Positions 3,112 to 23,703 of a stretch of DNA of 64,000 nucleotides are shown here, piece after piece (the first letter of the stretch is position 1; each line of letters starts with the position of its first letter). Origin of the DNA: a virus (taxonomy: Duplodnaviria; Caudoviricetes); IMG/VR virus record IMGVR_UViG_2851775564_000002, positions 34,219 to 98,218 of that record. The stretch is one strand, 5' to 3'. The notes under the pieces were generated by a model. The model had not been told where the DNA came from. It did no database searches and saw only the letters and a list, made by a program, of their open reading frames with translations. Both the position numbers and the translations under genes were made by a program.

Positions 3112-3170
3112 ACATTACACAAACATAAATAATACAAAATATATCTTAATAAAATAAGTTCTAAATGTAG

Positions 3171-4547: not shown

Positions 4548-4587
4548 TTTGAGTGGGCTTTAATTATGTAAAAGGGAGGCTTTAAAA

Positions 4588-4995: not shown

Positions 4996-5692
4996 ATTAT
5001 GTTTTGATTATGGACATGGTGGAGAAGATAGAGGTGCTTGTTACAAAGGAAGAAAGGAATCTAATGATGTTTTAAATATAGGTAAAGCAGTAGCAGAAGA
5101 AGTTAGAAGACATGGAATTACAGTTGATGAAACAAGAACTTCAGATGCTACAGTAAGTCTTAATGGTAGAAGCAGCTTTGAAAGTAGAAATAGCTACGAT
5201 TACTTTATATCATTTCATAGAAATGCTTTTAAACCAGAACAGGCTAGGGGTGCTGAAACTTACACTTATTTAAGTGCAAGTACAAGAGCTAAAGCATTAG
5301 CTGAAAAAATACAAGCTGGACTTGTAGGTGTTGGTTTTGTTAACAGAGGAGTAAAGACTGCTAATTATCATGTATTAAGAGAAACTAGATGCCCAGCAGT
5401 TTTAATCGAAATTGGGTTTATTGATAACAGTGTAGATAACAATATTTTTGATTCTAAAAGGAATGAAATAATTAAGGTAATAACTAAAGCTATATTGGCT
5501 CAACTAGGTATAAACTATAAAGGAAATGAAGTTAACGAATCAACAACTTATAAAAAGCAGCAATCTGCAAGTGGACAAACTCTTTATAGGGTTATGGCAG
5601 GATCATATGCTCTGAGGGATAATGCAGAAAAGCAAGTTAAGAAGCTAAAGTCAGCAGGATTTGATGCTTGTATTATGATTTTTAACAAGTAG
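4988..5692 (+). CDS. Endolysin, Amidase_3 plus C-terminal SPOR domain
   Basis: DYGHGG..E, SFHRNA, LIEIGFIDN; C-terminal LYRVMAGSY..NAEKQVKKLKSAGFDA. Confidence 0.93.
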   Translation: MSRLCFDYGHGGEDRGACYKGRKESNDVLNIGKAVAEEVRRHGITVDETRTSDATVSLNGRSSFESRNSYDYFISFHRNAFKPEQARGAETYTYLSASTRAKALAEKIQAGLVGVGFVNRGVKTANYHVLRETRCPAVLIEIGFIDNSVDNNIFDSKRNEIIKVITKAILAQLGINYKGNEVNESTTYKKQQSASGQTLYRVMAGSYALRDNAEKQVKKLKSAGFDACIMIFNK

Positions 5693-5713
5693 TTTTTTAT
5701 AAATCCATAAACC

Positions 5714-5740
5714 TTGACTTCTATCACATTTAGAGTGATA
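5714..5740 (+). promoter_or_regulatory. Promoter/operator upstream of recombinases, TTGAC-N9-ATTTAGAGTGAT
   Basis: Same motif and spacing at 12275-12300; contains IR TATCAC-N7-GTGATA. Confidence 0.5.
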
Positions 5741-5777
5741 TATAGTAGTACAAATTTGATAGAAAGGAGGATTTACA

Positions 5778-7067
5778 TTGCGTGTAAGAATTATTGAGCC
5801 TACTTTAAAAGTGCAAAATCAAAAGAAAAGAGTATGTGCTTATGCAAGGGTTTCAACAGATAGTGAAAAGCAAGAAGAATCTTTAGAAAATCAAATACAA
5901 TATTATGAAAATCTTATATTGGCTAATCCAGACTATGAGTTTATAGGAGTATTTGCAGATAGAGGAATAACAGGAACTACTGAAGAAAGACCAGAGTTTC
6001 AAAAGATGCTGCAAATTGCAAGAAATGGAAAAGTGGATTTAATTATAACAAAATCTATATCAAGGTTTGCAAGAAATACTACTATAGTTTTGAAAACTGT
6101 AAGACAACTTAAAGATATAGGTGTTGAGGTGAAATTCGAAAAAGAAAATATAGAAACCTTATCAGGGGATGGTGAGTTAATGCTCACTGTCCTTTCTTCT
6201 TTTTCTCAAGAGGAAAGCAAAAATGTAAGTGATAACATCAAATGGAGAATGAGAAAAAAGTTTCAGCAAGGAGAAATGATTATAAATACTAAAAGATTTT
6301 TGGGATATGACAAGGATGAGTATGGAGATTTAGTTATAAATCCTAAAGAGGCTGAGGTAGTAAAAAGAATTTTTAATGAATACTTAAGCGGAAAAGGATG
6401 TTTTACAATTGCAAAAGGTCTTAGAGAAGAAGGAGTTCCTACAGTTGCCGGTGGAACATGGAGAGACAGTACTATTTTAAGAATACTAAAAAATGAGAAA
6501 TACAAAGGGGATGCATTACTTCAAAAATATTATACATCAGATCATTTAAGAAAAAAGAAAGTTAAGAATAACGGAGAAGTTGAAAGCTATTATATTGAAG
6601 ATGATCATGTACCAATAGTTTCAAGAGAAGCATGGGAAACTGTTCAAGAAGAAATTAAAAAGAGAGCAAAGAAAAAGGGGATTATTTCAGGAGATACAAA
6701 AAAGTATAAGAGAAGATATCCACTAACAGGAATGCTTTACTGCAGTAAATGTGGTTCTACCTTAAGAAGAAGAACATGGAACACTAAACATTCTTGCAAA
6801 AAGATAGTATGGCAGTGTAGCAACTACGTTAAAAATGGAAAGAATGCTTGCATGGGAACTTCAATAGATGATGAAGTTATAAGCAAGCTTAATATAAAGG
6901 AAGAAACTGTAGTAAAGGAGGAATTTAGAAATGGCAAGAAGTATTACAGTTATACCAGCAAAATCCAACAGAACCAACATAGTACAAGCAGCAAAGTCAC
7001 AGAAAAAGAGAATGGCTGCATATTGCAGGGTATCAACAGACCAAGCAGAACAGTTATCAAGCTATGA
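5778..7067 (+). CDS. Large serine recombinase 1
   Basis: YARVST catalytic Ser, TKSISRFARN, recombinase domain, CxxC zinc ribbon. Confidence 0.95.
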   Translation: MRVRIIEPTLKVQNQKKRVCAYARVSTDSEKQEESLENQIQYYENLILANPDYEFIGVFADRGITGTTEERPEFQKMLQIARNGKVDLIITKSISRFARNTTIVLKTVRQLKDIGVEVKFEKENIETLSGDGELMLTVLSSFSQEESKNVSDNIKWRMRKKFQQGEMIINTKRFLGYDKDEYGDLVINPKEAEVVKRIFNEYLSGKGCFTIAKGLREEGVPTVAGGTWRDSTILRILKNEKYKGDALLQKYYTSDHLRKKKVKNNGEVESYYIEDDHVPIVSREAWETVQEEIKKRAKKKGIISGDTKKYKRRYPLTGMLYCSKCGSTLRRRTWNTKHSCKKIVWQCSNYVKNGKNACMGTSIDDEVISKLNIKEETVVKEEFRNGKKYYSYTSKIQQNQHSTSSKVTEKENGCILQGINRPSRTVIKL

Positions 7068-8343
7068 AGCACAGGTAAATTACTATACTAATTTTATAAA
7101 TAATAGTTCAGAATATGAAATGGTAAAAGTTTATGCAGATGAAGGAATTTCAGGAACTAACACAAAAAAGAGAGAACAATTTAATGAAATGATTAGAGAT
7201 TGCAAGGCAGGAAAAATAGATGTAATTATAACAAAATCCATATCAAGATTTGCTCGTAATACTTTGGATTGTTTAAATTATGTAAGAACCCTTAAAGAAC
7301 TTGGCATTGGAGTCATTTTTGAAAAGGAAAATATAAATACATTAGATGCTAAAGGAGAGGTATTGATTTCCATTTTAGCAAGCTTGGCTCAAGATGAAAG
7401 TCGCTCAATTTCTGAAAATTCAACATGGGGAATAAGAAGGAGATTTGAACAAGGAAAGCTGCACATAAACCATAAAAAATTTTTAGGATATACTAAAGAT
7501 GAGGAGGGCAATCTTATAATAGATGAAAAACAAGCCAAGATTGTAAGAAGAATTTATAAGGATTATCTTGATGGAAAAGGTACAAATAGAATAGCAAAAG
7601 AATTTGAAGAAAAAGGAATTAAAGGTTGGAATGGAAAAACTAAATGGTATGAAAGCACTATAAGAGGAATATTAACAAATGAAAAATACAAGGGAGATGC
7701 ACTACTGCAAAAAACTTATACAGTAGATTTCCTTACCAAGAAAAGGGCAGAAAACAATGGGGAAGTTCCACAGTATTATGTGGAGGAAAGCCACCCAGCA
7801 ATTATAGATAAAGAAATGTGGGAGGCAGTACAACTCGAGATGGAGAGAAGAAGAATTTTTGCTAAAGAACATGATATTGTAAAAGTAGATTATGCTACAA
7901 TAACTAATCCTTTTGCAGGGAAAATTATTTGCGGACACTGCGGCAATGTTTTTGGAAGAAAGGTTTGGAACTCCACAAATGAATTACGCAGGAGAATTGT
8001 TTGGAGATGTAATAGAAGATATATTAAAAAAGGGAAGAAAGGCTGTAATAATAAACATATAGATGATAAGGTTTTATATCAAGCTTTTATAGATACCTTC
8101 AATGCCATGATTGAAAATAAAGATTATTTCATGGAAAAGTGGAAGGAACATTTAAAAAGTGACAATGTTTTAGTAAGATATAAGGCAAAGCAATTTATGG
8201 GAATTTTAAAAAATGCAAAACCAATAAAAGAGTTTGATGAGGATTTATTTTTTAGGATAGTAGAGAAGATGACGGTGTTTGATGGAAAGAAGATTATTGT
8301 AAGTTTGCTTGATGGGACTGAGATTGAGGTTGTAATTGAATAA
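6931..8343 (+). CDS. Large serine recombinase 2
   Basis: YCRVST, TKSISRFARN, CGHCG zinc ribbon; overlaps recombinase 1 by 137 bp. Confidence 0.95.
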   Translation: MARSITVIPAKSNRTNIVQAAKSQKKRMAAYCRVSTDQAEQLSSYEAQVNYYTNFINNSSEYEMVKVYADEGISGTNTKKREQFNEMIRDCKAGKIDVIITKSISRFARNTLDCLNYVRTLKELGIGVIFEKENINTLDAKGEVLISILASLAQDESRSISENSTWGIRRRFEQGKLHINHKKFLGYTKDEEGNLIIDEKQAKIVRRIYKDYLDGKGTNRIAKEFEEKGIKGWNGKTKWYESTIRGILTNEKYKGDALLQKTYTVDFLTKKRAENNGEVPQYYVEESHPAIIDKEMWEAVQLEMERRRIFAKEHDIVKVDYATITNPFAGKIICGHCGNVFGRKVWNSTNELRRRIVWRCNRRYIKKGKKGCNNKHIDDKVLYQAFIDTFNAMIENKDYFMEKWKEHLKSDNVLVRYKAKQFMGILKNAKPIKEFDEDLFFRIVEKMTVFDGKKIIVSLLDGTEIEVVIE

Positions 8344-8352
8344 TAAAATAAG

Positions 8353-8398
8353 AGGCTGATTGTGATAATTTTTGTCATAATCAGTCATTTTTTTCTTT
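8353..8398 (+). terminator. Intrinsic terminator after recombinases
   Basis: GGCTGATTGTGATAA / TTGTCATAATCAGTC stem followed by T run. Confidence 0.7.
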
Positions 8399-8486
8399 AT
8401 TAAATAGAAAAAGAAAGAAAATAATTAGTATAATTGAAATAGAAAGATGTTTCATAATAATTTTAAGAAGAAATGGAGGGGAGAAA

Positions 8487-10145
8487 ATGCTCAAATTGGA
8501 GGAGTATATTTCAAAGAGAAAAAAGGAGGATAGAATTGATGAATTTGACTTTAAAAAACATTCAGAGAATATGGCAAGTGCTATAAAATATGTAACAGAT
8601 TATTTTAATAATTATTTGAATTTAGAGGATTACGATTATGAACAAACAAAAATACAACAAACAGTAGAGAAGTTTAAGAAGGATATACAAAAAAGATATC
8701 CAGAAACATATGACTATATAATCTCATACTATTTAGATAATAAAAAACGATTGGATAAATATATTGCTAAAGCTTATGAAGAAATTAAAGATAGTGAGTT
8801 ATTTTATAAAGAAGAGGATTATGATAGGGTTGCGGAGTATGTTATTGAAAAAAAATTAAATATTCCTATGAATGAAACATTATGTCATAAATTATCTGTG
8901 ATGGCACGAGAATATAAAAAACATGAAAATGAATGTCCATCTATTTCTGAAATGAAGGAACTTGATAATGCACTAGTGGATTGGGTAAAATATGTATTCA
9001 GGAAATATGATGTAAATTTATTAAATTATGCAAGCGAAATAGCATATCATTACTATGAAACTTACGTGGTTACAGAGTATGATAGGGATACAGATACTTT
9101 TTATCATATAAATAAGTATGACTATAGGTATCAAGAAAATCCATTTGATATTAATACTATTTATGTTAGAAATGAGCATAGGGAGTTTATTAAGGATAAT
9201 AAAGGTGAACTTGAAATGCTAATAATGTATTGCTGGTTAAATGACGAAATAAGAGATTTAGATTATTGGCCAGAATATGTTCAACTTTGCATTGATTCCA
9301 ATAGAGTAAAGTTATCAAAAAGAAAGTGTGTATTTATACCAGTTCGGATTTCTAATATTAATTACCCACCCGAAATAGTAACTTCGGGTAAATATATTGA
9401 AACAGTTAATGGTTTAATTGAGAAGGATCCAGGAAAAGATTATATATTAAGGATAGCTTATCGAAAGAACAATGATGAAATATGGAAAGATAATATATTA
9501 TTAGAATCTATAATTAAAAATATACAAAGTAGCTTTAAAAGATACGGAACTCCTAGTCTTGTAGAATTTCAATCCCCGTATAAAACAGTAGGATATAATA
9601 AAGAAAAGTTTTTTGATAGTTATCAGGTATTCGAGAAAGGTTTACGTAGATTTACTAATACTAAAATAGCTATAATAAATGGGAATACGAAAGGAAGTAA
9701 AGGAAAAGAATTTTTATTTTCAAATATAGAGGATATTATTAAATTACATAATACATGTAAACAATTAAATCTAAGATTAAAACTATCAGTGGATTTTACT
9801 GATAGTAATAGAAAAAATATTTTGAAGGAAAAAATTGAAGAAACAATTAATGCTTTATCTTCAATGAGAAGTTTTATAGTAGCAATTCATCTTAATAGTA
9901 TTGATTGTTGGAGTAATTATAGGAGTATATATGATAAAGACAATAAACATGCATACATAAGTGCCCATGAATATCCAACAGTATCAATTTTTATGAAGGG
10001 TTTGGCTACTATTGTACAGGATAGTAAAGTACGATATTTAATTCCAGAGAAAGCTAAAAATGAAGATGTACTTGAAGGGTTAATAGATATACTGTATCGT
10101 GTTGGATTTAGTTTTAAAAAAGGCGGTAATATTAATGAAAAGTAG
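8487..10145 (+). CDS. Hypothetical protein: helical N-terminus, possible degenerate TIM-barrel C-terminus
   Basis: 552-aa ORF with RBS GGAGGGG; alternating beta/alpha pattern in C-terminal half. Confidence 0.6.
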   Translation: MLKLEEYISKRKKEDRIDEFDFKKHSENMASAIKYVTDYFNNYLNLEDYDYEQTKIQQTVEKFKKDIQKRYPETYDYIISYYLDNKKRLDKYIAKAYEEIKDSELFYKEEDYDRVAEYVIEKKLNIPMNETLCHKLSVMAREYKKHENECPSISEMKELDNALVDWVKYVFRKYDVNLLNYASEIAYHYYETYVVTEYDRDTDTFYHINKYDYRYQENPFDINTIYVRNEHREFIKDNKGELEMLIMYCWLNDEIRDLDYWPEYVQLCIDSNRVKLSKRKCVFIPVRISNINYPPEIVTSGKYIETVNGLIEKDPGKDYILRIAYRKNNDEIWKDNILLESIIKNIQSSFKRYGTPSLVEFQSPYKTVGYNKEKFFDSYQVFEKGLRRFTNTKIAIINGNTKGSKGKEFLFSNIEDIIKLHNTCKQLNLRLKLSVDFTDSNRKNILKEKIEETINALSSMRSFIVAIHLNSIDCWSNYRSIYDKDNKHAYISAHEYPTVSIFMKGLATIVQDSKVRYLIPEKAKNEDVLEGLIDILYRVGFSFKKGGNINEK

Positions 10146-11109
10146 TGGAGCAATAGATATATATGATGAAACTGAGTTTCACTCATGGGTTAAAATGATT
10201 AATGTTACATTAGCAGAAAAGAATTATTGCAGCATGATTGAAGAACATAGTAGTGAGATGAATAATAGGAAAAATATAAATAAAGACAAGTATTTAGAAA
10301 ACCTACCTTTTAATATAAGATGGAAGCTGAAAGGGGAAATTTACACTTACTCAAATGTAAGAAAAACAGTTGTATTAGATATAGATACTTCAGAAAAAAT
10401 GAGGGATAAAACATATAGCTTTATGAGTGGTTTTATAAATAGCATTTATAAAATTGGTGGTGAAGTATATGTTGACAATATGCAAAATGCTGATAATACA
10501 ATATTTACGTTATTAGAGAGTAGATACAAATGTAGATTATATGAAAAGCAAGTTAAGTTAAGGGATAAGATAAAAATAGAGGAAAGAAAAATGAGACCTT
10601 TATACGATTTGGAATATACTGGTGATTTGTGCTTTCAAGTCTTTGGTGAAGAAATAAATAAAAAGGATACTTGGAAATTATTACAGACTATAGAGTTTTA
10701 TAAATCGCATACTATAGAAAATAAATTAATAGATTTGTTTTATAAATTAAGAGAAGATGCAATATCTAAAAAAATTATTATAGATCAAGAGATGGCAAAG
10801 CAACAACAAGAGAGGAAAAAAGAAATTAAACAATGGGAAGAAGAGAAGATGCGTGAAGATCAAGCCCATAAAGAAAAAGAAAAATTGCTAAAGAAACAAA
10901 AAATGCAAGAAAAAATAAAAAACCATATTGATAAATGGGAGAATATTAATAAAGTCTTAGAGTATGTTAATGATTTACGTAATATGTCAGGTATCAGTGA
11001 TAATAAAAGAAAACTAATTTTAAAGTATTGCGATTATGTTGAAAAGACCTATAGTAAATCAGAATTTTACGAAGAAATTTTAGAATTTTCACAAAACTTA
11101 GAATTGTAA
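10099..11109 (+). CDS. Hypothetical protein with C-terminal coiled coil (likely ATG at 10135)
   Basis: RBS AAGGCGGT before 10135; overlaps upstream stop; E/K/Q-rich helix. Confidence 0.6.
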   Translation: MLDLVLKKAVILMKSSGAIDIYDETEFHSWVKMINVTLAEKNYCSMIEEHSSEMNNRKNINKDKYLENLPFNIRWKLKGEIYTYSNVRKTVVLDIDTSEKMRDKTYSFMSGFINSIYKIGGEVYVDNMQNADNTIFTLLESRYKCRLYEKQVKLRDKIKIEERKMRPLYDLEYTGDLCFQVFGEEINKKDTWKLLQTIEFYKSHTIENKLIDLFYKLREDAISKKIIIDQEMAKQQQERKKEIKQWEEEKMREDQAHKEKEKLLKKQKMQEKIKNHIDKWENINKVLEYVNDLRNMSGISDNKRKLILKYCDYVEKTYSKSEFYEEILEFSQNLEL

Positions 11110-11122
11110 AGGAGAGATACAA

Positions 11123-12214
11123 ATGAAAATAACTATTAAAGATACTAATTTAGTTGATAAAGAGCTAGAAAAAAAGATTAGTAAAGAATTAGAAGATAAA
11201 GTTCAACAATTTGATAAGAACAAAAAATATACTATGGATTTGCAATTTACTGAAGATTTTATTATATGTGAGTCTGAAATAGATTCATATAAGATACCAG
11301 AAGAGTCGTTGCCACCATATCAAAGGGGAAAAGAATTAAAAGGCAAAGAGAAAATGTATGCATTATTAAGTTATAGAATTCATACTGTTATAAATATAGT
11401 TAAGGAATATGGAATAAGTTTGGGGAATTCAGGTATTAAAGGAATGCCGTTTATGGAATTTAATAAAATAGAACTATGTTTTTCAGAAGAAGATGTGCAG
11501 TTGGATAATAAATGCAAACGAAAAAAGGATAAGCAAATTACAGTTACTGCAATAATGCCAAGTTTTTCAGGGTTTATTAAAAATCTTGAATCTGCTTTCA
11601 AGGATATTGAAAATAGAATAGAAAAAGAATTAGAGAATGTATTTGATGATAAAAAAGAATATGATAAATATAAATCACTTGTTGATAAATTTGAGTTATA
11701 CAATATAGTAAGTGATTTTAAAAAAGAATATGGGAAAATGTGGATATATTCAAGGGAACATAAATCAGAATTGAAAAAGAAGTTTATAGAGACAATAAAA
11801 ATTAAAGCTGGAATTGTTTCAGATGATATATTAAAAGAGCAGATATTACAACCACTTGAGTTTAAAACAGTTGTAATATGTGAAATTCCTGTTTGTAAAA
11901 TAATTAAGAAAAATACTGGAGTAAATAAGTGTATTGGGCATATTAGATTATTAACAAATGGAAGAATAATTAATGTTAAGTATCAACCACATAGTAAGCC
12001 ATATGTAATACCAGATGAAGTTTTTGAAGAATGCATTGTTAGTGTCACATCTCAAAACAATAATAAAAAATTACTTAAGATAATAGAAGAACTTGTTAAT
12101 AAGGTTGATGAAATCTGCCAAGAGTTTGGATATGTACTTGAAAAGGATATAATTCACAATGTAATAGGATATATGGATATAAAGAGTATTATAAAAAAAG
12201 CTAGAGAAGCATAA
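11123..12214 (+). CDS. Hypothetical protein
   Basis: 363-aa ORF with RBS AAGGAGAG, 13 bp after previous gene. Confidence 0.6.
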   Translation: MKITIKDTNLVDKELEKKISKELEDKVQQFDKNKKYTMDLQFTEDFIICESEIDSYKIPEESLPPYQRGKELKGKEKMYALLSYRIHTVINIVKEYGISLGNSGIKGMPFMEFNKIELCFSEEDVQLDNKCKRKKDKQITVTAIMPSFSGFIKNLESAFKDIENRIEKELENVFDDKKEYDKYKSLVDKFELYNIVSDFKKEYGKMWIYSREHKSELKKKFIETIKIKAGIVSDDILKEQILQPLEFKTVVICEIPVCKIIKKNTGVNKCIGHIRLLTNGRIINVKYQPHSKPYVIPDEVFEECIVSVTSQNNNKKLLKIIEELVNKVDEICQEFGYVLEKDIIHNVIGYMDIKSIIKKAREA

Positions 12215-12314
12215 TGTGTAAGTTAATATAAAAAAAGTAATTAGTAAATATAAGTGCCGTACAGTAAATTCTATTTGACAAATATGAAATTTAGAGTAAT
12301 TACTAGATTACTAT

Positions 12315-12845
12315 TTGTTAAGGAGGAATAGAAAAATGACGAATGAGGAAAGAGATCAAATAATATTATTGAGATGCCAGGGTTTAAGTTATGAGAAGAT
12401 ATCAAAAGCATTAGGATTGAAGCGGGATACAATTAGGGCGTTTTGTAAAAGAAATGGTCTTAATGGTCAAGCAGCTGATATTAAAGAATCCCATAAAAAA
12501 ATAGTTATTGATGAATTCACATACAAGATTTGCCTTTATTGTGGGAAAAAACTTGAGCAAAAACAAACAGGCCGAAGAAAAAAATACTGCAGTATAGAAT
12601 GTAAAAGAGAATGGGAAAAAGGGCATAGAAAAATATATATTCTTAAATGCCAATATTGTGGCAAAGACTATGAGTCTAAAGGATTTAAAAATCGAAAATA
12701 TTGTAGCCATGAGTGCTATATTCGAGATAGGTTTTGGAGAGAAGAAGATGCTGCTGAGATTTTAAGAAAATTATTTAAAAGAGAAAGTATTCCTTCAATA
12801 CCTAAATGGGTAAAAGATTTATTGCTTAAAACAAATGATGAGTAA
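12315..12845 (+). CDS. HTH plus zinc-finger protein (likely ATG at 12336)
   Basis: GLSYEKISKALGL HTH; CxxC and YCSxxC pairs twice; RBS AAGGAGG. Confidence 0.75.
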   Translation: MLRRNRKMTNEERDQIILLRCQGLSYEKISKALGLKRDTIRAFCKRNGLNGQAADIKESHKKIVIDEFTYKICLYCGKKLEQKQTGRRKKYCSIECKREWEKGHRKIYILKCQYCGKDYESKGFKNRKYCSHECYIRDRFWREEDAAEILRKLFKRESIPSIPKWVKDLLLKTNDE

Positions 12846-13088
12846 AATTTTACTAGGGTAAAAAATAGTATTGAAAAGCCTTAGGGTTAGAATATGAGAA
12901 GTTAGTGTTTAGCCGAAAGTAGCTTTAAAGTTATAATTTCTAGCTTATTTTAATAAGATTTTTTATTTATAAGGCAATAATACATTAAAGAAGGATTGAA
13001 TTTGTTACACTTTTTAGTTCGACCCCCATTAAATACTAAAGCCCCCCGAAAAAAATATGCTTTTTGTGCGAAAATGTATTTACGGCTT

Positions 13089-13108
13089 GTCTACACACAT
13101 GTGGAGAC
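13089..13108. repeat. Serine-recombinase-type attR of prophage 1, imperfect IR around central CA
   Basis: GTCTACACA-CA-TGTGGAGAC, arms 8/9 complementary. Confidence 0.65.
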
Positions 13109-13111
13109 GGT
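13096..13111 (+). repeat. attL core of prophage 2
   Basis: CACATGTGGAGACGGT identical at 62766-62781; next to tyrosine integrase 3' end. Confidence 0.9.
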
Positions 13112-13133
13112 TGTTAAACTATCTAGGAAATAA
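13098..13133 (+). pseudogene. rlmD: Orphan 3' end of 23S rRNA m5U methyltransferase gene (HVETVVKLSRK*)
   Basis: Matches the RlmD/RumA C-terminal motif (DMFPxTx)HVETV; no upstream gene body in frame. Confidence 0.75.
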
Positions 13134-13170
13134 GCGGTATTACAAAGCATATAAAGATTTTTAAACACAA

Positions 13171-13212
13171 AATTCCTACATTCTTCCGACTAAAATTTTA
13201 TAATGTCGGAAG
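13171..13212. promoter_or_regulatory. Putative integrase arm-type sites, left
   Basis: TTCCTACA, CTTCCGAC and inverted TGTCGGAAG; same motif set at 62586-62621. Confidence 0.6.
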
Positions 13213-14355
13213 TTTTTTTAATACTTCATTTTTTAGTATATTTATAGTATTATTTTTCATCTTTTTTGTAACATGAGAATAAGTATCCATTGTAGTTGAT
13301 ATTTTGCTGTGACCAAGTCGTTTCTGAATTTCTTTAGGTTGTGCACCTGATTCTAAAAGCATGGTAGCATGAGTATGCCTTAATGAATGAAAGTGAAATT
13401 TTATTCCAAGCTCATAATTGACTACACGGCTTAAATACTTTAAACTACCGGTAGTTATAGGTTCACCATTTTCTTTAGTACAGACAAAATTAGAATTTGC
13501 ATAATATCTTCCGTATTTTAATTTATTTTCTTTCTGCCATGTTTGATGGCGCTTTAAAATTTTAACTAAGGTATCTCCAATATCAATAGTTCTATGAGAA
13601 CTTTTAGTTTTTGGAGTACCAAACTCCCATATGCCCTTACCTTTGCCAATTAATATTTTTTCAACCCTTATATTTTTGTTTTCTAGATCAACACAACCCC
13701 AAGTAAGCCCACAAACTTCTGCAGCTCTCATTCCAGTATTAAAAGCTATCTGCAGTGGAATATAGAAATTGCTTCCTTGTGGAAATCTTTTAAGTATTGT
13801 TTTAAATTGATCTATTGTAATTATTTTTAGCTTATCTTCATTTTCGATATTATCAAACTTTGGCATTTTTACATATATCATAGGACTTTGTTTTATGAAC
13901 TGATAAGGATACACAGCTTGCTTCAATGCCCCTGAAAGTACACCATAAAATCCACGTATAGAGTTTTTACTGAATCCTTCTACATACTTCTTGTTTAAGA
14001 AGCCTTGCAGTGTACTTGGCTTTAAAGTCTTTAATCTATAGGATCCCAAAGCTGGTTTTATATGTTTATTAATAATTCTTTTGTAATCTTGCTGGGTATT
14101 GTATTTAAGATTTACAAGTACGTATTCCTTGTACCAATAGTCAAAATAATCCGCTGTGGAAATATTACTTTCGTCAACTACAGAACCACATTTTTCAAAT
14201 TCATTTAAAGCTTGTCTTAAAGCTTTTTCGGCTTCGGCTTTAGTCGATCCTCCAGCGCGTTCAACTCTTTTCCTTTTTCCATTTACTCGACCAACCTCAA
14301 AACTATAATACCATTTACCACCTTTTTTTCTAACTGAGCCTTGCACTATGATCAT
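13198..14355 (-). CDS. int: Tyrosine integrase (likely GTG at 14346)
   Basis: Arm-binding N-terminus; TGMRAAE, HSLRHTHAT, RLGH, TYSH catalytic residues. Confidence 0.96.
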   Translation of the reverse strand: MIIVQGSVRKKGGKWYYSFEVGRVNGKRKRVERAGGSTKAEAEKALRQALNEFEKCGSVVDESNISTADYFDYWYKEYVLVNLKYNTQQDYKRIINKHIKPALGSYRLKTLKPSTLQGFLNKKYVEGFSKNSIRGFYGVLSGALKQAVYPYQFIKQSPMIYVKMPKFDNIENEDKLKIITIDQFKTILKRFPQGSNFYIPLQIAFNTGMRAAEVCGLTWGCVDLENKNIRVEKILIGKGKGIWEFGTPKTKSSHRTIDIGDTLVKILKRHQTWQKENKLKYGRYYANSNFVCTKENGEPITTGSLKYLSRVVNYELGIKFHFHSLRHTHATMLLESGAQPKEIQKRLGHSKISTTMDTYSHVTKKMKNNTINILKNEVLKKLPTL

Positions 14356-14370
14356 CCTTTCTTATTAAAT

Positions 14371-14388
14371 TAGGAACACATGTTCCTA
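14371..14388. promoter_or_regulatory. Firmicutes LexA (Cheo) box-like palindrome upstream of int
   Basis: TAGGAACACATGTTCCTA contains GAAC-N4-GTTC. Confidence 0.65.
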
Positions 14389-14438
14389 CAAATATTAAAA
14401 ATATATAGGAGATTAACTCCTATGAATATATTTTATAT

Positions 14439-14747
14439 CTAAACTGATTTACGTCTTAATGTTCTTATTTCAGCTTCATGTGCGCCATACATTTCAAGCA
14501 GAGATTTATTTGTTTCATTTAAATCAGAAGAATTCTTATCTATATTATTAGACATATTTTTAACCGTACCTTGAAGCTCTGCAACTTGATGAGTTAAATT
14601 ACTAATATCGGTTTTATGCACTTCTGAATTATGTTCCAAAGCCTTAAGAATTTGAGTGCTTTCATTAAGTTGAGATTTAATAGGTGATAGTTCCTGTCTT
14701 AATAGTTGTTTGATGGCAGACAAAGTTTCCTTATCCGTTAATATCAT
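14439..14747 (-). CDS. Coiled-coil hypothetical protein, paralog of 18425-18691
   Basis: Shared SQ(L/I)NE.TQILKALEH.S..HK motif. Confidence 0.7.
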   Translation of the reverse strand: MILTDKETLSAIKQLLRQELSPIKSQLNESTQILKALEHNSEVHKTDISNLTHQVAELQGTVKNMSNNIDKNSSDLNETNKSLLEMYGAHEAEIRTLRRKSV

Positions 14748-14785
14748 TCCTTTCTATGATTTAGTATAATCTGTGTTTGGTAAAT

Positions 14786-15598
14786 TTATACTGATAGTTC
14801 TCTATATATTGCGATAGGTCGTATTACATTTGCATTATTTTTTAATACCATTGAAGCAAATACAGAGTTAGTACCATCAATAATACCTTTAAACTCTTCT
14901 GTCATGTTGTTTATAGTATTAAGTTCAGTAACATCTAGTATTCCGATTATAGTCCAAATGCTTGGGATAATATTCCCGTATGATCTAAATAAATCATCAG
15001 GAGATATTGTTAAATATTCTTTGTTTATAATACAAGTAGCGGTTTCATCTGTAGTTGTCTCTACTGAAAACTCCAATCCGTAAGGAATCATTTTTATGAT
15101 ATCCTGTATAGCTTTGCCTAAAGTATTATTTTTATTTTTCCCGCGCATATTTGGATTTATAGGTGTATTAAATTCGGGAACCAATTTGTTCTTTTCAATA
15201 AATGGAAATATTTGATCTATGATATTATAATCACGGTACGTTAGTTTGCCTTTAGTTGCAATTATAGAACCTTCATGAGCATCACTTAATGAATGAATAG
15301 TCAAGTTAAATCGTTGTAGTAACTCAAGCACTTTGTAATCATATGGATTTATGTTTTTTGTAATGTTTTGAGTATCTGAGCGTTTTGAAGATGTTGATCC
15401 GCTAGCAATTTTAATGCTACCTCCAATATTATTAGAACTTTCGTCAGCACATATTTCAGATTTACTAAGAGTCATTATGTCGCCGCCAAAAATCTGAGAG
15501 TAAAATGAATTTATTAGGTTTGTATCTTTATATAAGAAATCTATTAAGGTAATTTCTTCGCTATTTTCGTATTGTTCTTGTTTCCCCATTTTTCCCAC
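14786..15598 (-). CDS. Conserved prophage hypothetical protein (DUF6414-like)
   Basis: DFLYKD..LINSFYSQIFGG start and RPIAIYRE end, recalled family pattern. Confidence 0.55.
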   Translation of the reverse strand: MGKMGKQEQYENSEEITLIDFLYKDTNLINSFYSQIFGGDIMTLSKSEICADESSNNIGGSIKIASGSTSSKRSDTQNITKNINPYDYKVLELLQRFNLTIHSLSDAHEGSIIATKGKLTYRDYNIIDQIFPFIEKNKLVPEFNTPINPNMRGKNKNNTLGKAIQDIIKMIPYGLEFSVETTTDETATCIINKEYLTISPDDLFRSYGNIIPSIWTIIGILDVTELNTINNMTEEFKGIIDGTNSVFASMVLKNNANVIRPIAIYRELSV

Positions 15599-15693
15599 TC
15601 CTTATTAAATGCAGTGGTTTTCCTATCAAGATCATCTGTAGTTTGATGTTGCTGCTTTTTTATGTCATTAATTAATTTCTTGAATTTAAACAT
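15544..15693 (-). CDS. 49-aa ORF not in the ORF track (MFKFKKLIND...), overlapping the next gene
   Basis: RBS GAGGTG, ATG at 15693, TAA at 15544-15546. Confidence 0.55.
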   Translation of the reverse strand: MFKFKKLINDIKKQQHQTTDDLDRKTTAFNKEWEKWGNKNNTKIAKKLP

Positions 15694-15774
15694 AATAAAC
15701 ACCTCAACGTTATTACTTTATATTATTTATTATAGACTATCAAGTAAGAATACCAAAGTGTATTTTTTATTAAT

Positions 15775-15906
15775 TTATTTTTCAAATTTATACTTAACCA
15801 ATTGTTCAGGAACACCATAATAGTCAGCTAGTTGATTTATGCATATGTTTTCCAAACAACATTTATCTATATCTTTATCATTAATTAATAGTTCTACCGC
15901 AAACTT
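15775..15906 (-). pseudogene. C-terminal remnant of an ImmA/IrrE-family peptidase
   Basis: KFAVELLI...NQLADYYGVPEQLV, no start or HExxH. Confidence 0.65.
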
Positions 15907-15971
15907 ATATAATAACTTAATCTATATATCTATTTAGAACTTCAATTAATTTATCAGAGTATGAGTATAAA

Positions 15972-16301
15972 TTACCTATATAACTTTTCTGCCATAGCAT
16001 CAGCATTCCGTTCCATATATGTATATTGCATATCCAAACCTATCATATATCCAAGATGTGGCATATCGTCAGCTATGTGCTTAATTTCATGTATGAAAGT
16101 TTTACATTGAGTCTTATAATTTACTTCACCGTTTAAAATAAGATGATAATTTCCTCTTTTACTTAAATAGACAAATCCTAATATACTAGATGGTAGATTG
16201 CAGGCTATAGTAGTTTTTATATCAAATGCATTCATAGCTTCATAAAAAGGAATATCTTCATTTAAAAGGGCCTTTAGCAAAGGCTTGTCCAATATATCCA
16301 T
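15972..16301 (-). CDS. Short ImmA/IrrE-like metallopeptidase
   Basis: GFVY..ILN..HEIKH..E.NAD; downstream of the repressor. Confidence 0.75.
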   Translation of the reverse strand: MDILDKPLLKALLNEDIPFYEAMNAFDIKTTIACNLPSSILGFVYLSKRGNYHLILNGEVNYKTQCKTFIHEIKHIADDMPHLGYMIGLDMQYTYMERNADAMAEKLYR

Positions 16302-16328
16302 AATGTCATCCCCTTTAATGATTTATAT

Positions 16329-17474
16329 TTATTTAAATAATGACTTTAGTTTTGCAAAGAATCCTTTATCTTTCTTTGTATTTGTACAATCTTTTTGTGA
16401 ATCAATAGATATATTTAATTTAAAAGCAACATTATGATTTGTTGGTTGAATCCCATTATATGATTTTTGCCATTCCTTATTTTTTCTTAAATCTATTGTA
16501 TCAGGTAAAGAATCTACAACAGATTTAATGTTTTCAATAGAAAAGCAAGGACACATTACATATGGCAATGAATATGTTTTAATTCTTTCTAGTATAGCTT
16601 GTTTATTAACACGCCATATTGAAGAAGTTATAAAATCACCTATTGTCCACCAAGGATGATTGTAGGCACTTATTTGAAGTCTATGACATCCAAAAGGATT
16701 CGCCGTCATTTCACTAGCTCCAAAACAAAAATCAGGATTACCCGATCTACATTTATCACCATAACAATAATTTAATCCACCAATTATTTTTCTATCCATA
16801 ATAGTTCCATTTATTATAACAAAACAAGATTTCCAATTACTTACTAACTCATATAATTTTATAAATTGTAAGTATTCTGTAGGTTTATTTGAGTAAACAG
16901 CTTGGTATAAAATCTTATTACTAACGTTATTTTCAATATATTGTGGTGCACTTTGGGCAAGTGCTAATGCTTGAGAAAAACTTGGAGACCTAGATTCTCC
17001 AAAAGATATACTTACATACCAGTCGGGAAATTTGATATTTTTAGTAGAGATTTCTTTTGCTTCAATTGGTGTAATGGTTGTTGCTGAAGAATGTTTTACC
17101 GGTTTATTTGTAGTTCTATTTTTAGGGATAGCAACCTTAGAGTTTTTTTGTTTTTCTATTTTATTATTTAATCTGTTTAACCTATGTTCAAACATATCAG
17201 GTCTACAGTTAAAGTATTCTTTCCAAGGAACATTAATAGCTCTTTTACATATTTCAGCCGCTTCCTTGTACATTTTTCTACGTTCAAGTATTATTGCAGG
17301 CCTTTCATAATAATCAATTCCCCTAGGGCTATATCTATTTAATATATTAAGATATATCTTTAACGCCTCATCTTCCTTTTTTAATTTTTCCAAACTCCTA
17401 GCTTTTTCATATAAATTAAAGTATATTGAAAAATTTTCATCTTCAAAATACATAGTTTTCAACCTCCAATGCAA
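16329..17474 (-). CDS. TPR-like plus Cys-rich hypothetical protein in lysogeny module (likely ATG at 17453)
   Basis: N-terminal TPR-like helices; CYGDKC..FC..NPFGCH..CPC; RBS GGAGG. Confidence 0.65.
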   Translation of the reverse strand: MHWRLKTMYFEDENFSIYFNLYEKARSLEKLKKEDEALKIYLNILNRYSPRGIDYYERPAIILERRKMYKEAAEICKRAINVPWKEYFNCRPDMFEHRLNRLNNKIEKQKNSKVAIPKNRTTNKPVKHSSATTITPIEAKEISTKNIKFPDWYVSISFGESRSPSFSQALALAQSAPQYIENNVSNKILYQAVYSNKPTEYLQFIKLYELVSNWKSCFVIINGTIMDRKIIGGLNYCYGDKCRSGNPDFCFGASEMTANPFGCHRLQISAYNHPWWTIGDFITSSIWRVNKQAILERIKTYSLPYVMCPCFSIENIKSVVDSLPDTIDLRKNKEWQKSYNGIQPTNHNVAFKLNISIDSQKDCTNTKKDKGFFAKLKSLFK

Positions 17475-17502
17475 ATAGGTCTAAGTTAAAATTATATGTT
17501 TT

Positions 17503-17955
17503 TTAACCATCATTTCTATCTTCTTCATCTTCGATAGCTTTTATAATTCTAATTATTTTCTTTATGTCATTAGAATCCATGTTCTTTGTTTGTTTGAAGA
17601 GTAATTTTAAATCTTCTCTTTCTTTTAATAGATTCCAGAATTCAGATAGTTCTGGATCATCATCTAATGATTTTGATATTTTTTCAACTGGTGTATCTTT
17701 TTTTTGAGCAGATAGAGTTCTATCGTCTGAATTTCCAAGAAGATAGTCTGTAGAAACATTATAGTAATTAGCAAGCTGATTTATAAAATCAGCATTTGGA
17801 GTTCTTAAGTTATTTTCATATCTTGACAAAGTTGATTTAGTTGTATTTAATGCTTTAGACAGTTCTTCTAAAGTAACATTTTTTTCGTTTCTAAGTTTTT
17901 TCATTCTTTGATTAAAAGTTGCCATAATAACACCTCTTTGAACTAATGATAACAT
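17503..17955 (-). CDS. CI/ImmR-like XRE repressor 1 (likely ATG at 17925)
   Basis: HTH TLEELSK..STLSRYENN..VSTDYLLG; no S24 self-cleavage domain. Confidence 0.9.
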   Translation of the reverse strand: MLSLVQRGVIMATFNQRMKKLRNEKNVTLEELSKALNTTKSTLSRYENNLRTPNADFINQLANYYNVSTDYLLGNSDDRTLSAQKKDTPVEKISKSLDDDPELSEFWNLLKEREDLKLLFKQTKNMDSNDIKKIIRIIKAIEDEEDRNDG

Positions 17956-18062
17956 TTAGTTGCCAAAAATAACAACTAAGTTGCCAAAAATAAAATATAT
18001 TTATTAAAATTCATTGACAAGTTGCCAAATGTATAATATAATGAAGTTACCAAATAGATAAC
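17918..18062. promoter_or_regulatory. Switch 1: operator array and consensus sigmaA promoter
   Basis: GTTRCCA(A/T)A at 17918, 17959, 17980, 18021, 18046 (and 18292); TTGACA 18014 - 17 nt - TATAAT 18037. Confidence 0.85.
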
Positions 18063-18075
18063 AAAAGGAAACGAG

Positions 18076-18303
18076 GTGGGAGTATTGCAAAAAAGAAAAG
18101 CTAACTTTAAATTGAAAGGATTAAGGGTAGAACATAATTTAAAACAGTCCGATATAGCTAAAAAAATTGGTATAGCAGAATCTACCTATAATAGAAAAGA
18201 AAACGGATATACTGATTTTTCAGCAACTGAAATGTATAAAATCAGCAAAGTTTTTAAAAAAGATCCTGCGTTTATTTTCTTTGATAATAAGGTTGCCAAA
18301 TAG
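18076..18303 (+). CDS. Cro-like HTH protein 1
   Basis: QSDIAKKIGIAESTYNRKENG; divergent from repressor 1. Confidence 0.88.
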   Translation: MGVLQKRKANFKLKGLRVEHNLKQSDIAKKIGIAESTYNRKENGYTDFSATEMYKISKVFKKDPAFIFFDNKVAK

Positions 18304-18308
18304 ATAAC

Positions 18309-18388
18309 AAAAGGAGGTAGCGAGCTAATGGATAAACAGTCAGAGCAAAGAATCAAGCAACTTGGGCAAAGGGTAGCTGTACTTGAAG
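18309..18388 (+). repeat. 80-bp imperfect direct repeat, copy 1 (contains start of 27-aa ORF 18328-18411)
   Basis: 70/80 identical to 19388-19467, first 30 bp identical. Confidence 0.85.
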
Positions 18389-18424
18389 AAGATATTAAAG
18401 CACAGCCTTAGGATTTTAATAAGT

Positions 18425-18691
18425 TTATTTAACAGATTTCAAATAAGCTATATCCATAATATTTTTACCTGTTGCAGTCTCAACAAAATTTAGATCCTTT
18501 GATATGGTATCAACCTTAGAGGTTAAAGTTTCGATTTTACCTTCAACTGATGCAGTTCTGTGGTTGAGTTGATCAAGTAACGCTTTATGTTCTTGCGAAC
18601 TATGTTCAAGAGCTTTGAGTATTTGAGTATTTTCATTAATTTGAGATTGCATTGATTCAAGGATTTTTAATATTTTTTCTTCATTATTCAT
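18425..18691 (-). CDS. Coiled-coil hypothetical protein, paralog of 14439-14747
   Basis: TQILKALEH motif; 12 bp downstream of repressor 2. Confidence 0.7.
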   Translation of the reverse strand: MNNEEKILKILESMQSQINENTQILKALEHSSQEHKALLDQLNHRTASVEGKIETLTSKVDTISKDLNFVETATGKNIMDIAYLKSVK

Positions 18692-18703
18692 GATAACGCT
18701 CCT

Positions 18704-19018
18704 TTATTTTATTGATTTTATGAATTTAGAAAGTAGTTCAAGTTGTTCAGGAGTTAGGTCTTTAGCACTATTTAATAACTCTTTAAGCTGTTGATTAAGA
18801 ATAACAGGTTCTGAATTATTATCATCATTGAAGAATTCAGAAAGAGTAATTTTAAAGTGATTACAAACTTTAATTAATAAATCAATTGATGGTTTTGCAG
18901 TACCTTTTTCAATCTTATTTATGGTTGAAGGGTCAACACCAATTGAAATAGCTAGTTTATTAGCAGATATATCATTAAGTTTTCTTATTTTTATTAATCT
19001 TTTACCAATATTAATCAT
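18704..19018 (-). CDS. XRE repressor 2
   Basis: SANKLAISIGVDPSTINKIEKG..PSID..LSEFF. Confidence 0.88.
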   Translation of the reverse strand: MINIGKRLIKIRKLNDISANKLAISIGVDPSTINKIEKGTAKPSIDLLIKVCNHFKITLSEFFNDDNNSEPVILNQQLKELLNSAKDLTPEQLELLSKFIKSIK

Positions 19019-19031
19019 AACATTACCTCAT

Positions 19032-19135
19032 TTGAATATAATTCAACTTTAATTATACAGTAATAATTAACTTAAAAAAATATTGGATTATATTCATGAA
19101 GTTCTATTGACATGTTGAATTAAATCCAATATAAT
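19032..19135. promoter_or_regulatory. Switch 2: three palindromic operators and consensus sigmaA promoter
   Basis: TTGRAT-N3-ATYCAW at 19032, 19083, 19115; TTGACA 19107 - 17 nt - TATAAT 19130. Confidence 0.85.
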
Positions 19136-19149
19136 TAATTTGTAAGGAG

Positions 19150-19407
19150 GTGAAAATAGTGCTTGGCGACAAAATAAAAAAGCTAAGAGAAAAACATTCT
19201 TTAACCCAAATACAACTTGCTGACAAGGTTAACGCAGATATATCCACAATTTCAAAAATAGAAAATAACAAGTCCAATCCATCATTGCCTATGCTTTATA
19301 AAATTGCTAAGGTATTGGATTCTACTCCAGATGAATTAATAAAAAATACTGAAATAAAATATTTTAAACTGAAATCAGAAGAAACTAAAAAGGAGGTAGC
19401 GAGCTAA
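19150..19407 (+). CDS. Cro-like XRE protein 2
   Basis: LTQIQLADKV..STISKIENN..PSL; divergent from repressor 2. Confidence 0.88.
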   Translation: MKIVLGDKIKKLREKHSLTQIQLADKVNADISTISKIENNKSNPSLPMLYKIAKVLDSTPDELIKNTEIKYFKLKSEETKKEVAS

Positions 19408-19467
19408 TGGATAAACAACTAGAGCAGCGAATCAAGCAACTTGAGCAAAGGGTAACTGCTCCTGAAG
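19388..19467 (+). repeat. 80-bp imperfect direct repeat, copy 2
   Basis: See 18309-18388. Confidence 0.85.
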
Positions 19468-19601
19468 GACAGGTTCAAGAGCAGTCAAGTGCAAAAATAG
19501 AAATTACAAATGTAGATGAATTTAAAAAATTAATTGCCGAAGCTATAGAAAAGTTAGATAAAATTAAAAATTTTAAATTCAATATTAAAGTATCTGACTA
19601 A
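19407..19601 (+). CDS. Small hypothetical protein
   Basis: RBS AGGAGG; TAATG coupling. Confidence 0.6.
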   Translation: MDKQLEQRIKQLEQRVTAPEGQVQEQSSAKIEITNVDEFKKLIAEAIEKLDKIKNFKFNIKVSD

Positions 19602-19602
19602 A

Positions 19603-19839
19603 TTATTTTCCAAAATCATCAAACATCTTTTTTAAATCATCAAGTGATTTATTTACTGATTCTTTTGTGGAATCGAAATTAGAATCTTTTTTAAGTGTAA
19701 TTCCAGTTTTACAATGCGGACAGGTTATCGTTTTGCCAGCATCGTTAAGTGTATAAGGTATTTTACTTTTGCATTTTGGACATTCCATGTCAAGTTGTGC
19801 ATTGCCATATAGAGAATCAAAATTTAAATCATTACTCAT
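19603..19839 (-). CDS. Small zinc-ribbon moron protein
   Basis: CPKC and CPHC; own promoter; opposite strand. Confidence 0.7.
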   Translation of the reverse strand: MSNDLNFDSLYGNAQLDMECPKCKSKIPYTLNDAGKTITCPHCKTGITLKKDSNFDSTKESVNKSLDDLKKMFDDFGK

Positions 19840-19866
19840 AAATTATCACCACCTTTCATGGTGATA

Positions 19867-19895
19867 AAATTCTACAAAATATATAAAAATCCTTT
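19867..19895 (-). promoter_or_regulatory. SigmaH-type promoter
   Basis: AAAGGATTT-N11-GTAGAATTT. Confidence 0.65.
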
Positions 19896-19932
19896 TATAT
19901 ATTAATTTTAGCAGTAAAAGGAAGTGATTTAA

Positions 19933-20379
19933 ATGGACAAAGAGTGCAGAAATATCTACCAAATAGCAAGAGAAAGTGCAGGCTTGACTCAAGAAAAAGC
20001 ATCCGAGTTAATGGACATATGTGTTGAAAGCCTGAGGGCATATGAAAGTGGTAGAAGAATACCACCGGATCGAATAGTTATCAAAATGATAGAGATATAT
20101 AATACGCAGTATCTAGCATATCAACATCTTAAAACAAGCGCTGAGGTAGGACAGAAGTATTTGCCTGACATTATAATTGAAGATTTGCCAGCATCAATAT
20201 TAAAACTTCATACAGAGATTAAAGATTATATTGATTGTGAAGATTTACTCATGGGAATCTGTTCTGATGGAAAAGTTAGTGAAAATGAAGCTTGTGATTT
20301 TAAGAAGATATGTAAAGAACTTGATGATGTACTTGAAGCAATTTACACTTTTAAATTTTCTAAGAAGAAATCTGAATAG
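19933..20379 (+). CDS. XRE-HTH phage regulatory protein
   Basis: AGLTQEKASE..SLRAYESGRRIPP. Confidence 0.8.
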   Translation: MDKECRNIYQIARESAGLTQEKASELMDICVESLRAYESGRRIPPDRIVIKMIEIYNTQYLAYQHLKTSAEVGQKYLPDIIIEDLPASILKLHTEIKDYIDCEDLLMGICSDGKVSENEACDFKKICKELDDVLEAIYTFKFSKKKSE

Positions 20380-20395
20380 AGAGGGGTTGAAATAA

Positions 20396-20623
20396 ATGGA
20401 CAATGAAATACTCTATACAGTTGATGAAGTAGCCATGAAGTTAAAAACTAATAAAAATATGGTATATGACTTGATAAGAAGAGGATATATTTCAGCATTA
20501 AAACTTGGCAGATTAAAAGTAACGAAGTTTGAACTTCTAAGGTTTGCAAAATGGGCACAGGGTAAAGACTTTACTAATTTGGACAATGTAAAAGATCTTA
20601 CGTTTCAAAAAAAGGAGGCGTGA
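20396..20623 (+). CDS. Excisionase-like HTH protein
   Basis: LYTVDEVA..LK..VYDLIRRG.I.A.KLG. Confidence 0.8.
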   Translation: MDNEILYTVDEVAMKLKTNKNMVYDLIRRGYISALKLGRLKVTKFELLRFAKWAQGKDFTNLDNVKDLTFQKKEA

Positions 20624-20707
20624 AAAGTAAGTAGCTTAGTAAAACATGCTTAAATATGTAGGTTATTGGAAGTTGGTACCAAAATATAAAGAAACGGAGG
20701 GGAATAA

Positions 20708-20984
20708 ATGAACGACTTACAGATTTTTAAAGATCAGCAGTTAATCCCACTAAAAGAAAGGTAGAAAAGGAACTGACTATAATATGCCAACTCAGAGAGC
20801 CATGGATCTAGGATTATTTTCTATAAAGGAAACATCAATAAGCCATTCGGATGGACACATAAGTATATCTACTACTACCAAAGTGACAGGGAAAGGGCAA
20901 ATATACTTTGCGAACAAATTTAAAGAGATTCAGGATAAGAATTTAATGGATAGGAGGGCTACCAAATGCATCTTAGAAAATTAA
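20708..20984 (+). pseudogene. Internally deleted antirepressor (N-terminal stub plus KilAC-type C-terminus out of frame)
   Basis: MNDLQIFKDQQLIPLKER* then RKGTDYNMPTQRAMDLGLF..TKVTGKGQIYF in +1 frame. Confidence 0.75.
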
Positions 20985-21118
20985 CCAGGAGGCAAAAGGA
21001 CATTTTAAACAAAATGGACATGGACCCAAAGAATTATTTAAGCCTTAAAAAGGATTTTGAAAGCTTTACAGTTGTTGATATTAGAACTATGAAGCCACTT
21101 AAACCAATCAGATATTAG
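20966..21118 (+). CDS. 50-aa phage protein not in the ORF track (MHLRKLTRRQK...)
   Basis: RBS AGGAGG, ATG 20966, TAG 21116-21118. Confidence 0.6.
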   Translation: MHLRKLTRRQKDILNKMDMDPKNYLSLKKDFESFTVVDIRTMKPLKPIRY

Positions 21119-21134
21119 GGGGTGAGAAATAAAA

Positions 21135-21592: not shown

Positions 21593-21640
21593 AGGGTAAA
21601 AGTTTAAATAAAAAATTCATTAATCCCATTTTATCGTGAA

Positions 21641-22806: not shown

Positions 22807-22809
22807 TGT

Positions 22810-23679: not shown

Positions 23680-23703
23680 GGAGTTATTGAACTATGGGAG
23701 AAG

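Follow-up and report, generated by a model that had tools for sequence, protein, structure and literature searches.

Probable tandem accretion of a serine-recombinase prophage and a tyrosine-integrase prophage at the 3' end of rlmD in a Clostridiaceae genome

Here we describe two prophages, prophage 1 (P1) and prophage 2 (P2), that share an attachment region at the 3' end of the rlmD (rumA) gene of a Clostridiaceae host. The stretch of DNA analysed, 64,000 nt in length and hereafter called the window, corresponds to G000:C1:609,967-673,966. Judged by gene content and junctions, P1 and P2 appear to be two complete siphovirus-type prophages that adjoin each other in the final codons of rlmD, and we place at about 0.8 the probability that they accumulated by tandem accretion, in which P1 would have crossed over at a CA dinucleotide through a serine recombinase, P2 would have entered through a tyrosine integrase, and three attachment (att) sites would have resulted. 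The array is a case of site-specific tandem accretion at rum/rlmD, of a kind known from streptococci, and embodies no new principle; what seems unusual is the pairing of phage with phage and of serine with tyrosine chemistry, with putative cuts within ~10 nt of each other, in the Clostridiaceae.

P1 measures ~54.3 kb, from genome position 568,764 (window position -41,202) to window position 13099, and encodes a DNA polymerase and a primase-helicase; its large terminase, portal, major head and tape measure genes lie upstream, in L002/L003. P2 measures 49,670 bp. The main features of the array are listed below by window position and strand, followed by the basis of the assignment.

1..13099, + strand: right 13 kb of P1, with tail fibre, holin and amidase ORFs
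13060..13097, + strand: P1 P arm of the attachment site, conserved in L028, L029, L033, L034 and L038, diverged in L047
13089..13108, no strand: inverted repeat (8/9) around the putative serine crossover dinucleotide CA; window identical to L028 through A13099
13096..13111, + strand: left copy of the 16-nt repeat, hybrid attR1/attL2 (repeat search)
13098..13133, + strand: P2-supplied rlmD tail, HVETVVKLSRK-stop, with no rlmD body joined here; the same tail stands directly on rlmD in G001
13101..13108, no strand: putative P2 tyrosine strand-exchange (overlap) zone (identity runs of six attL/attR pairs)
13112..62765, no strand: P2 body, with repressor, terminase, portal, major head, tape measure and endolysin genes
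62753..62781, + strand: attR2, comprising the P2 P arm (rlmD-identical from 62758) and the right 16-nt copy (sequence comparison)
62768..62809, + strand: native rlmD tail, HVETVVLLSRVKK-stop, resembling the tail of the G002 rlmD (which ends VLMSRVKK-stop)
63023..64000, + strand: host PhzF-family gene right of the array (Pfam E 3.5e-76)

An exact 16-nt repeat, CACATGTGGAGACGGT, flanks P2 with copies at 13096-13111 and 62766-62781; a 16-mer taken from the site (2-nt offset) gave 2 matches at ≤2 mismatches, against 0.00 expected from 100 shuffles. A third site, attL1, was located at genome position 568,755-568,774 (window ~-41,211), at the 3' end of an intact rlmD, in the position of its last 12 codons. 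The three sites (attL1, hybrid attR1/attL2, and attR2) have 13 nt (CACATGTGGAGAC) in common, with a different version of the rlmD tail at each. Numbering from the C of the His codon as +1, identity between attL1 and attR2 runs from -10 to +11, whereas that between attL2 and attR2 is limited to -2 to +14; the rlmD match at attR2 reaches 10 nt further left, and the codons left of the His codon at attL2 are P1 DNA. From this comparison, attL1 reads as rlmD joined to a P1 tail, the hybrid as a P1 P arm, the shared 16 nt and a P2 tail, and attR2 as a P2 P arm joined to the native rlmD tail. The hallmarks of accretion are present, namely n+1 att sites with a common core, a hybrid middle site, and a separate recombinase for each element.

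The hybrid site is also distinguished by symmetry. A 9-2-9 inverted repeat (GTCTACACA CA TGTGGAGAC, 13089-13108) is paired at 8/9 around C13098-A13099; repeats of at least this quality occur at only 21 of 63,980 window positions, and pairing is 8/9 at the hybrid site versus 3/9 at attL1 and 3/9 at attR2. A preliminary description of this DNA had proposed a 16-bp core at 13096-13111 overlapping an inverted repeat centred on CA 13098-13099, and had noted that the rlmD match extends further left at attR while the corresponding codons at attL are replaced by P1 DNA; the exact repeat, the 8/9 pairing and the two identity ranges given above bear out both observations.

It was further predicted that rlmD would be found at the left end of P1, its absence there being named as grounds for refutation. 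An intact 451-aa rlmD/rumA ORF with TRAM and tRNA_U5-meth_tr domains does lie there (genome 567,444-568,799, ~41.2 kb left of the window). The accompanying expectation that the rlmD body would break off at the CA did not hold: P1 supplies a tail of its own, 13 nt are common with the middle site, and the gene is intact, finishing HVETVVKIVRR-stop before passing into non-host DNA. We propose that each phage brings a substitute rlmD tail, which would keep rlmD whole, now ending in the P1 tail.

A degenerate search recovered HVETVVKL-type tails in 27 viral contigs, mostly behind non-rlmD DNA, and extra short copies of the rlmD 3' end occur in 10 of 40 related genomes, with three in G016. The 3' end of rlmD is a busy hotspot at which arrays are common. 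A metagenome pattern scan for the P2-type tail returned 2 matches, both plain rlmD-family genes of other organisms. The only genome of the same genus, G001, carries at C1 ~2,252,200-2,252,400 (L005, L024) an rlmD with the P2-type tail (KLSRK-stop), followed by ~200 nt of P2-like arm and a 3' fragment of an integrase gene, and then by host genes; a prophage, since decayed, has here replaced the end of rlmD for good. G001 was considered as an empty or single-prophage reference and was set aside, given that it holds only a decayed P2-like remnant and that its downstream synteny is unlike that of G000. The Peptidase_M27 profile gave no match in the single contig of the host, and none in the controls either, so that this negative does not establish absence.

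The recombination genes and their neighbours near the hybrid junction are as follows.

4988..5692, + strand: P1 endolysin, Amidase_3 and SPOR (Pfam E 7e-40)
5778..7067, + strand: P1 large serine recombinase 1, 429 aa; Resolvase PF00239, Recombinase PF07508 and Zn_ribbon_recom PF13408, all above curated cut-offs
6931..8343, + strand: P1 large serine recombinase 2, 470 aa; the same three Pfam domains above curated cut-offs
8487..12214, + strand: three P1 cargo ORFs (552, 336 and 363 aa) between the recombinases and the att arm
12315..12845, + strand: HTH and zinc-finger-like protein beside the P1 att arm (HTH_38, phrog_2308)
13198..14355, - strand: P2 tyrosine integrase, 385 aa, with arm-binding domain; Phage_integrase PF00589 (4e-29), Phage_int_SAM_3 PF14659 (5.8e-15) and Arm-DNA-bind_4 PF14657 (5.9e-06)

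Large serine recombinases combine an N-terminal resolvase catalytic domain with recombinase and zinc-ribbon domains. Their att sites are short, with a non-palindromic central dinucleotide and imperfect inverted half-sites, and excision proceeds via a separate directionality factor. Enzymes of the lambda-Int type, in turn, have catalytic, SAM-like core-binding and arm-binding domains, and act on a 6-8 bp overlap that is identical in both partners and flanked by core-type binding sites. The earlier suggestion that the two prophages use different chemistries is matched by these Pfam assignments, with two large serine recombinases in P1 and a tyrosine integrase in P2; no tyrosine integrase was found at the left end of P1 beside rlmD.

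Relatives of serine recombinase 2 were retrieved from 30 IMG/VR loci (43-97% aa identity). The right junction was readable in six of these (L028, L029, L033, L034, L038 and L047), the remaining 24 stopping earlier or lacking a right junction. All six pass from the phage arm, conserved in five of them and diverged in L047, through the CA of the His codon into an rlmD-type tail that varies by locus, which is in keeping with the serine crossover that had been placed at this very CA. In L028, whose recombinase is 93% identical, the match to the window is base for base through A13099, with divergence from 13100. Combined with the 13 nt over which attL1 agrees with the middle site, these comparative junctions confine the P1 crossover dinucleotide to 13096-13099, and the 8/9 symmetry probably singles out CA 13098-13099 within this interval, an assignment that we regard as well supported. 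P1 would thereby integrate by means of its pair of large serine recombinases, with crossover at CA 13098-13099. In G012, G017 and L088 an rlmD body directly abuts the P1-like left end. A scan of viral contigs for the P1 P arm followed by the His codon gave 4 matches, three of them already among the loci described here and the fourth, L159, unrelated. L033/L160 was examined as a third tandem and rejected: a terminator-like hairpin comes after its right arm, which may be native.

The P1 recombinase genes show 64% nt matches to Streptococcus suis phages named '_rum', e.g. MN270261 phi-SsuFJNP8_rum. P1 resembles the Phi-m46.1 / PhiSsUD.1-type phages, to which MN270261 belongs, in integrating at rlmD and in its gene order, in which the lysin precedes a pair of overlapping large serine recombinase genes and these in turn precede the cargo slot and the att arm (lysin, recombinase, recombinase and cargo follow in this order in MN270261 as well), whereas those phages carry resistance genes as cargo and P1 carries three family-less ORFs in a Clostridiaceae host. 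The ends of the MN270261 record contain no recognisable rlmD tail. The recombinase 1 and 2 ORFs overlap by 137 nt (6931-7067) in different frames, compared to 38 nt in MN270261 (50340-50377). The three cargo ORFs at 8487-12214 gave no Pfam or PHROG match; in L028 and L035 they adjoin the recombinases and are conserved at 80-90% nt identity, and they occupy the position of tet(M) in MN270261. The gene at 12315-12845 is kept at the right end of 8 of the 30 P1-like loci, and from its position its product is a candidate accessory or directionality factor.

The P1 right-end module (12275 to 13111/13121) was found at 96-98% identity, with other partners, in Logan contigs of three of the four runs examined. 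In two runs it leads into a P1-like left end, a join that represents either attP or a P1-P1 junction, and in one into a KLKRKH-type tail, which also occurs in L028 and L029. The runs in which module 12275-13121 is kept are labelled as three different organisms, and the DNA left of 12275 differs among them. The module behaves like an exchangeable integration module. At the opposite end of P1, a cargo block directly follows the rlmD tail (L001:9050-15749, genome 569,049-575,748) and encodes DUF5655, TIR_2, a nuclease resembling MutH, a pair of N6_N4 DNA methylases, and a 635-aa protein in which a D12 (Dam-type) methyltransferase is fused to a DpnII endonuclease; this block looks like a defence island at the att-proximal end.

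The P2 exchange zone was approximated from related prophages. Species-level genomes contained P2-like integrases at 30 places, of which 4 weak ones (≤32% identity) were dropped and 26 scanned; 19 junctions were classifiable (at least 45 nt upstream), the other 7 being cut, masked or without the motif. In 17 of the 19 an rlmD-family gene lies directly at attL (16 by tblastn, 1 by a DMFP-coding tail), and ~11 of these 17 genes are a 31-36% identical paralogue, not the orthologue; in the other two (L107, L109) different DNA is present. Both sites could be compared in five P2-like prophages and in the window itself, giving six attL/attR pairs. Identity in the five prophages runs as follows.

G045: -10..+17
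G048: -9..+17
G043: -6..+14
G050: +1..+12
G042: -9..-5, -3..+2 and +4..+11

The only stretch of overlap length common to all six pairs is +4 to +11, 8 nt corresponding to window 13101-13108, a zone that rests mainly on the mismatched pairs of G042 and G050 (integrases 73% and 66% identical to that of P2) and that presumes no mutation after integration. We infer that P2 integrates by its lambda-type tyrosine integrase and exchanges strands at ~13101-13108, a zone beginning 2 nt right of the P1 CA and extending ~2-10 nt right of it. A pattern search of the same contig did not find an attR for the P2-like prophages of G041, G044, G046, G047 and G049. In G042 a P2-like prophage on rlmD forms part of an array (C31:152409, 165126 and 218559; L150, L152 and L153) in which two copies of one right arm lie 12.7 kb apart after the prophage, which suggests a further small element or a remnant. 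The attR right arms of G048 and G050 likewise resemble phage-type tails. The early region of P2 itself contains a 97-nt direct repeat (18309-18405 and 19388-19484, 82% identity) that takes in the ribosome-binding site and start of two small paralogous ORFs.

P2 resembles lambda-type integrators into gene 3' ends in its arm-binding integrase next to attL, its duplicated core and its phage-borne substitute tail, and differs from them in that the rlmD-side flank of its attL is replaced by the arm of another phage. The P1 junction appears to fall inside the P2 core and to have replaced this flank, and to that extent the displacement of the left part of the P2 attL proposed in the preliminary description stands. 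Of a P2 core spanning ~-10 to +14, the hybrid keeps just -2 to +14, within which the putative exchange zone at 13101-13108 is retained, as is the whole P2 right arm.

What this loss means for P2 depends on whether its integrase needs the rlmD-side flank. If it does, then P2 came first and would be impaired until P1 excises precisely, an event that would rebuild a normal attL2; if the integrase can do without the flank, there is no lock, and either order is allowed. The preliminary description had taken it that P2 integrated first. This is not settled, since both orders yield exactly the three sites observed and sequence alone cannot fix the order; we consider P2 first to be the somewhat likelier one. 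Impaired excision of P2 for as long as P1 stays is conceivable, at less than even odds.

According to the fuller ordered-excision account, raised in the preliminary description and plausible at less than even odds, P2 was resident first, P1 then cut into the attL of P2 and moved the rlmD-side half of that site 54 kb off, and P2 would exit only after P1. The account draws on what the hybrid lacks, beginning with the core left of -2. The two arms of P2 form a 9/11 inverted repeat with a 15-nt spacer (a weak signal alone, with 34 such repeats in the window), to the left arm of which native rlmD matches at 8/11 and the hybrid site at 0/11. An rlmD-like ACAAAC/ACAAG motif lies at ~-10 to -5 in the P arms of P2, G042, G043, G045 and G048 (ATAAAC in G050), and is replaced by GTCTA in the hybrid. 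If the flank matters, P2 could hardly have entered the attR of P1, which favours P2 first, and P1 is on the rlmD side in both tandems seen. Against these points, attL and attR of G050 share hardly any identity left of the His codon, from which it follows that P2-like integrases need no identity there; the members of streptococcal rum tandems are each described as still excising by their own integrase (PMC13651849); and P2 is fully intact and without decay, hence shows no sign of long-term trapping.

The converse history, in which P1 entered native rlmD first and P2 then used the attR of P1 through the shared 16 nt and the native tail, is a reasonable minority alternative. The entry of P2 would then have swapped the outer part of the right-hand target half-site of P1, and the site used for integration would have been of the hybrid type, from which P2 could also excise, leaving no reason to expect a lock. 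Besides accounting for the three sites, this history is compatible with the native-looking right arms of the P1-like loci L038 and L047, which have no obvious neighbour on the right side, with the occurrence of the P1 right-end module beside at least 3 different right-hand partners, and with the complete retention of the exchange zone in the hybrid. It fits less well with the position of P2, as attL1 would have offered P2 a full rlmD-side flank and thereby the order rlmD-P2-P1, which is seen in 0 of 2 tandems, and with the use by 17 of the 19 classifiable P2-like prophages of a site with an rlmD-family body. Public read data were consulted as well: 78 sampled words of 12700-13500 gave no public run with half or more of them, and in the contigs of the four runs examined the hybrid junction was unspanned and excision products were not observed, these being assembled contigs, from which rare forms are dropped.

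Tandem accretion by two independent elements, in whichever order, was also weighed against joint inheritance. A second rlmD-P1-P2 tandem was found on an independent IMG/VR contig (3300011904_000034), which carries recombinases that are 79% and 68% identical at the aa level. That pairing and order recur with diverged versions of both recombinases would be expected of a composite element of ~104 kb, inherited or moved jointly and excising through the outer attL1 and attR2, and phage-ICE tandems at rum can excise as a unit (PMC13651849). We nonetheless consider a composite improbable: 104 kb probably exceeds the packaging capacity of either capsid, attL1 lacks the P2 arm region, no conjugation genes were seen, and attR2 resembles a target site rather than a partner for attL1 by serine-integrase rules (PMC3783163). 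Still less probable, to the point of being hardly credible, is an origin of the array in homologous recombination between rlmD-tail repeats, or the reduction of one element to a defective remnant, the att anatomy then being without present function. Remnants do occur, as with the decayed arm in G001 and the doubled right arm in G042; against this, the recombinases of both prophages here are intact and their structural modules complete, and the shared repeats are just 13-21 nt.

The preferred reading, tandem accretion of two prophages, has close parallels in streptococci. In Streptococcus suis and other streptococci, elements arranged in tandem with three att sites are described at the 3' end of rum, with an asymmetric dependence on the two integrases (PMC5053989, PMC13651849); the elements use serine recombinases (PMC5053989), phage-ICE tandems occur, rlmD is named as a recurring hotspot, and an 8-bp motif and a GA dinucleotide are mentioned for the att site (PMC13651849). 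In Erysipelothrix and other Gram-positive bacteria, too, rlmD lies beside serine-recombinase prophages (PMC12785378). The streptococcal tandems are like the array described here in the gene and 3' position used, in the side-by-side pair, and in the three att sites with a hybrid in the middle; there, a newcomer uses an att site of the resident, the contributions of the two integrases are unequal, and an ICE is usually one of the partners, whereas here both are phages, one serine and one tyrosine. A single search of the literature for ordered excision of tandem prophages returned general integrase papers among the matches listed, none of these with 'tandem prophages', which is no proof of absence. 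In the ICESt1/CIME accretion of Streptococcus thermophilus, related elements reportedly share one tyrosine integrase, making cis-mobilisation possible; in contrast to the one tyrosine integrase for both elements there, two unrelated recombinases are present here.

A bolder reading, less likely than not, is that a serine phage specifically enters the attL of a resident tyrosine phage, cutting 2 nt from the exchange zone of the resident and taking its rlmD-side core flank along, and that the resident would then be held until the newcomer leaves; the matching order on the independent contig would make this recurrent in the Clostridiaceae. If true, such entry into attL would amount to a contest between phages, or to enforced co-induction, encoded by att sites that overlap. 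Arrays at rlmD (rum) shape the movement of phages and ICEs in streptococci, and the same hotspot is at work in the Clostridiaceae, where two recombination chemistries are aimed at one conserved His codon. If the hybrid site ties the escape of one prophage to that of the other, it would constitute a simple sequence-encoded hierarchy between co-resident prophages, and orthogonal recombinases whose sites interlock would have a precedent in nature; failing that, the locus would be no more than a clear textbook case of accretion.
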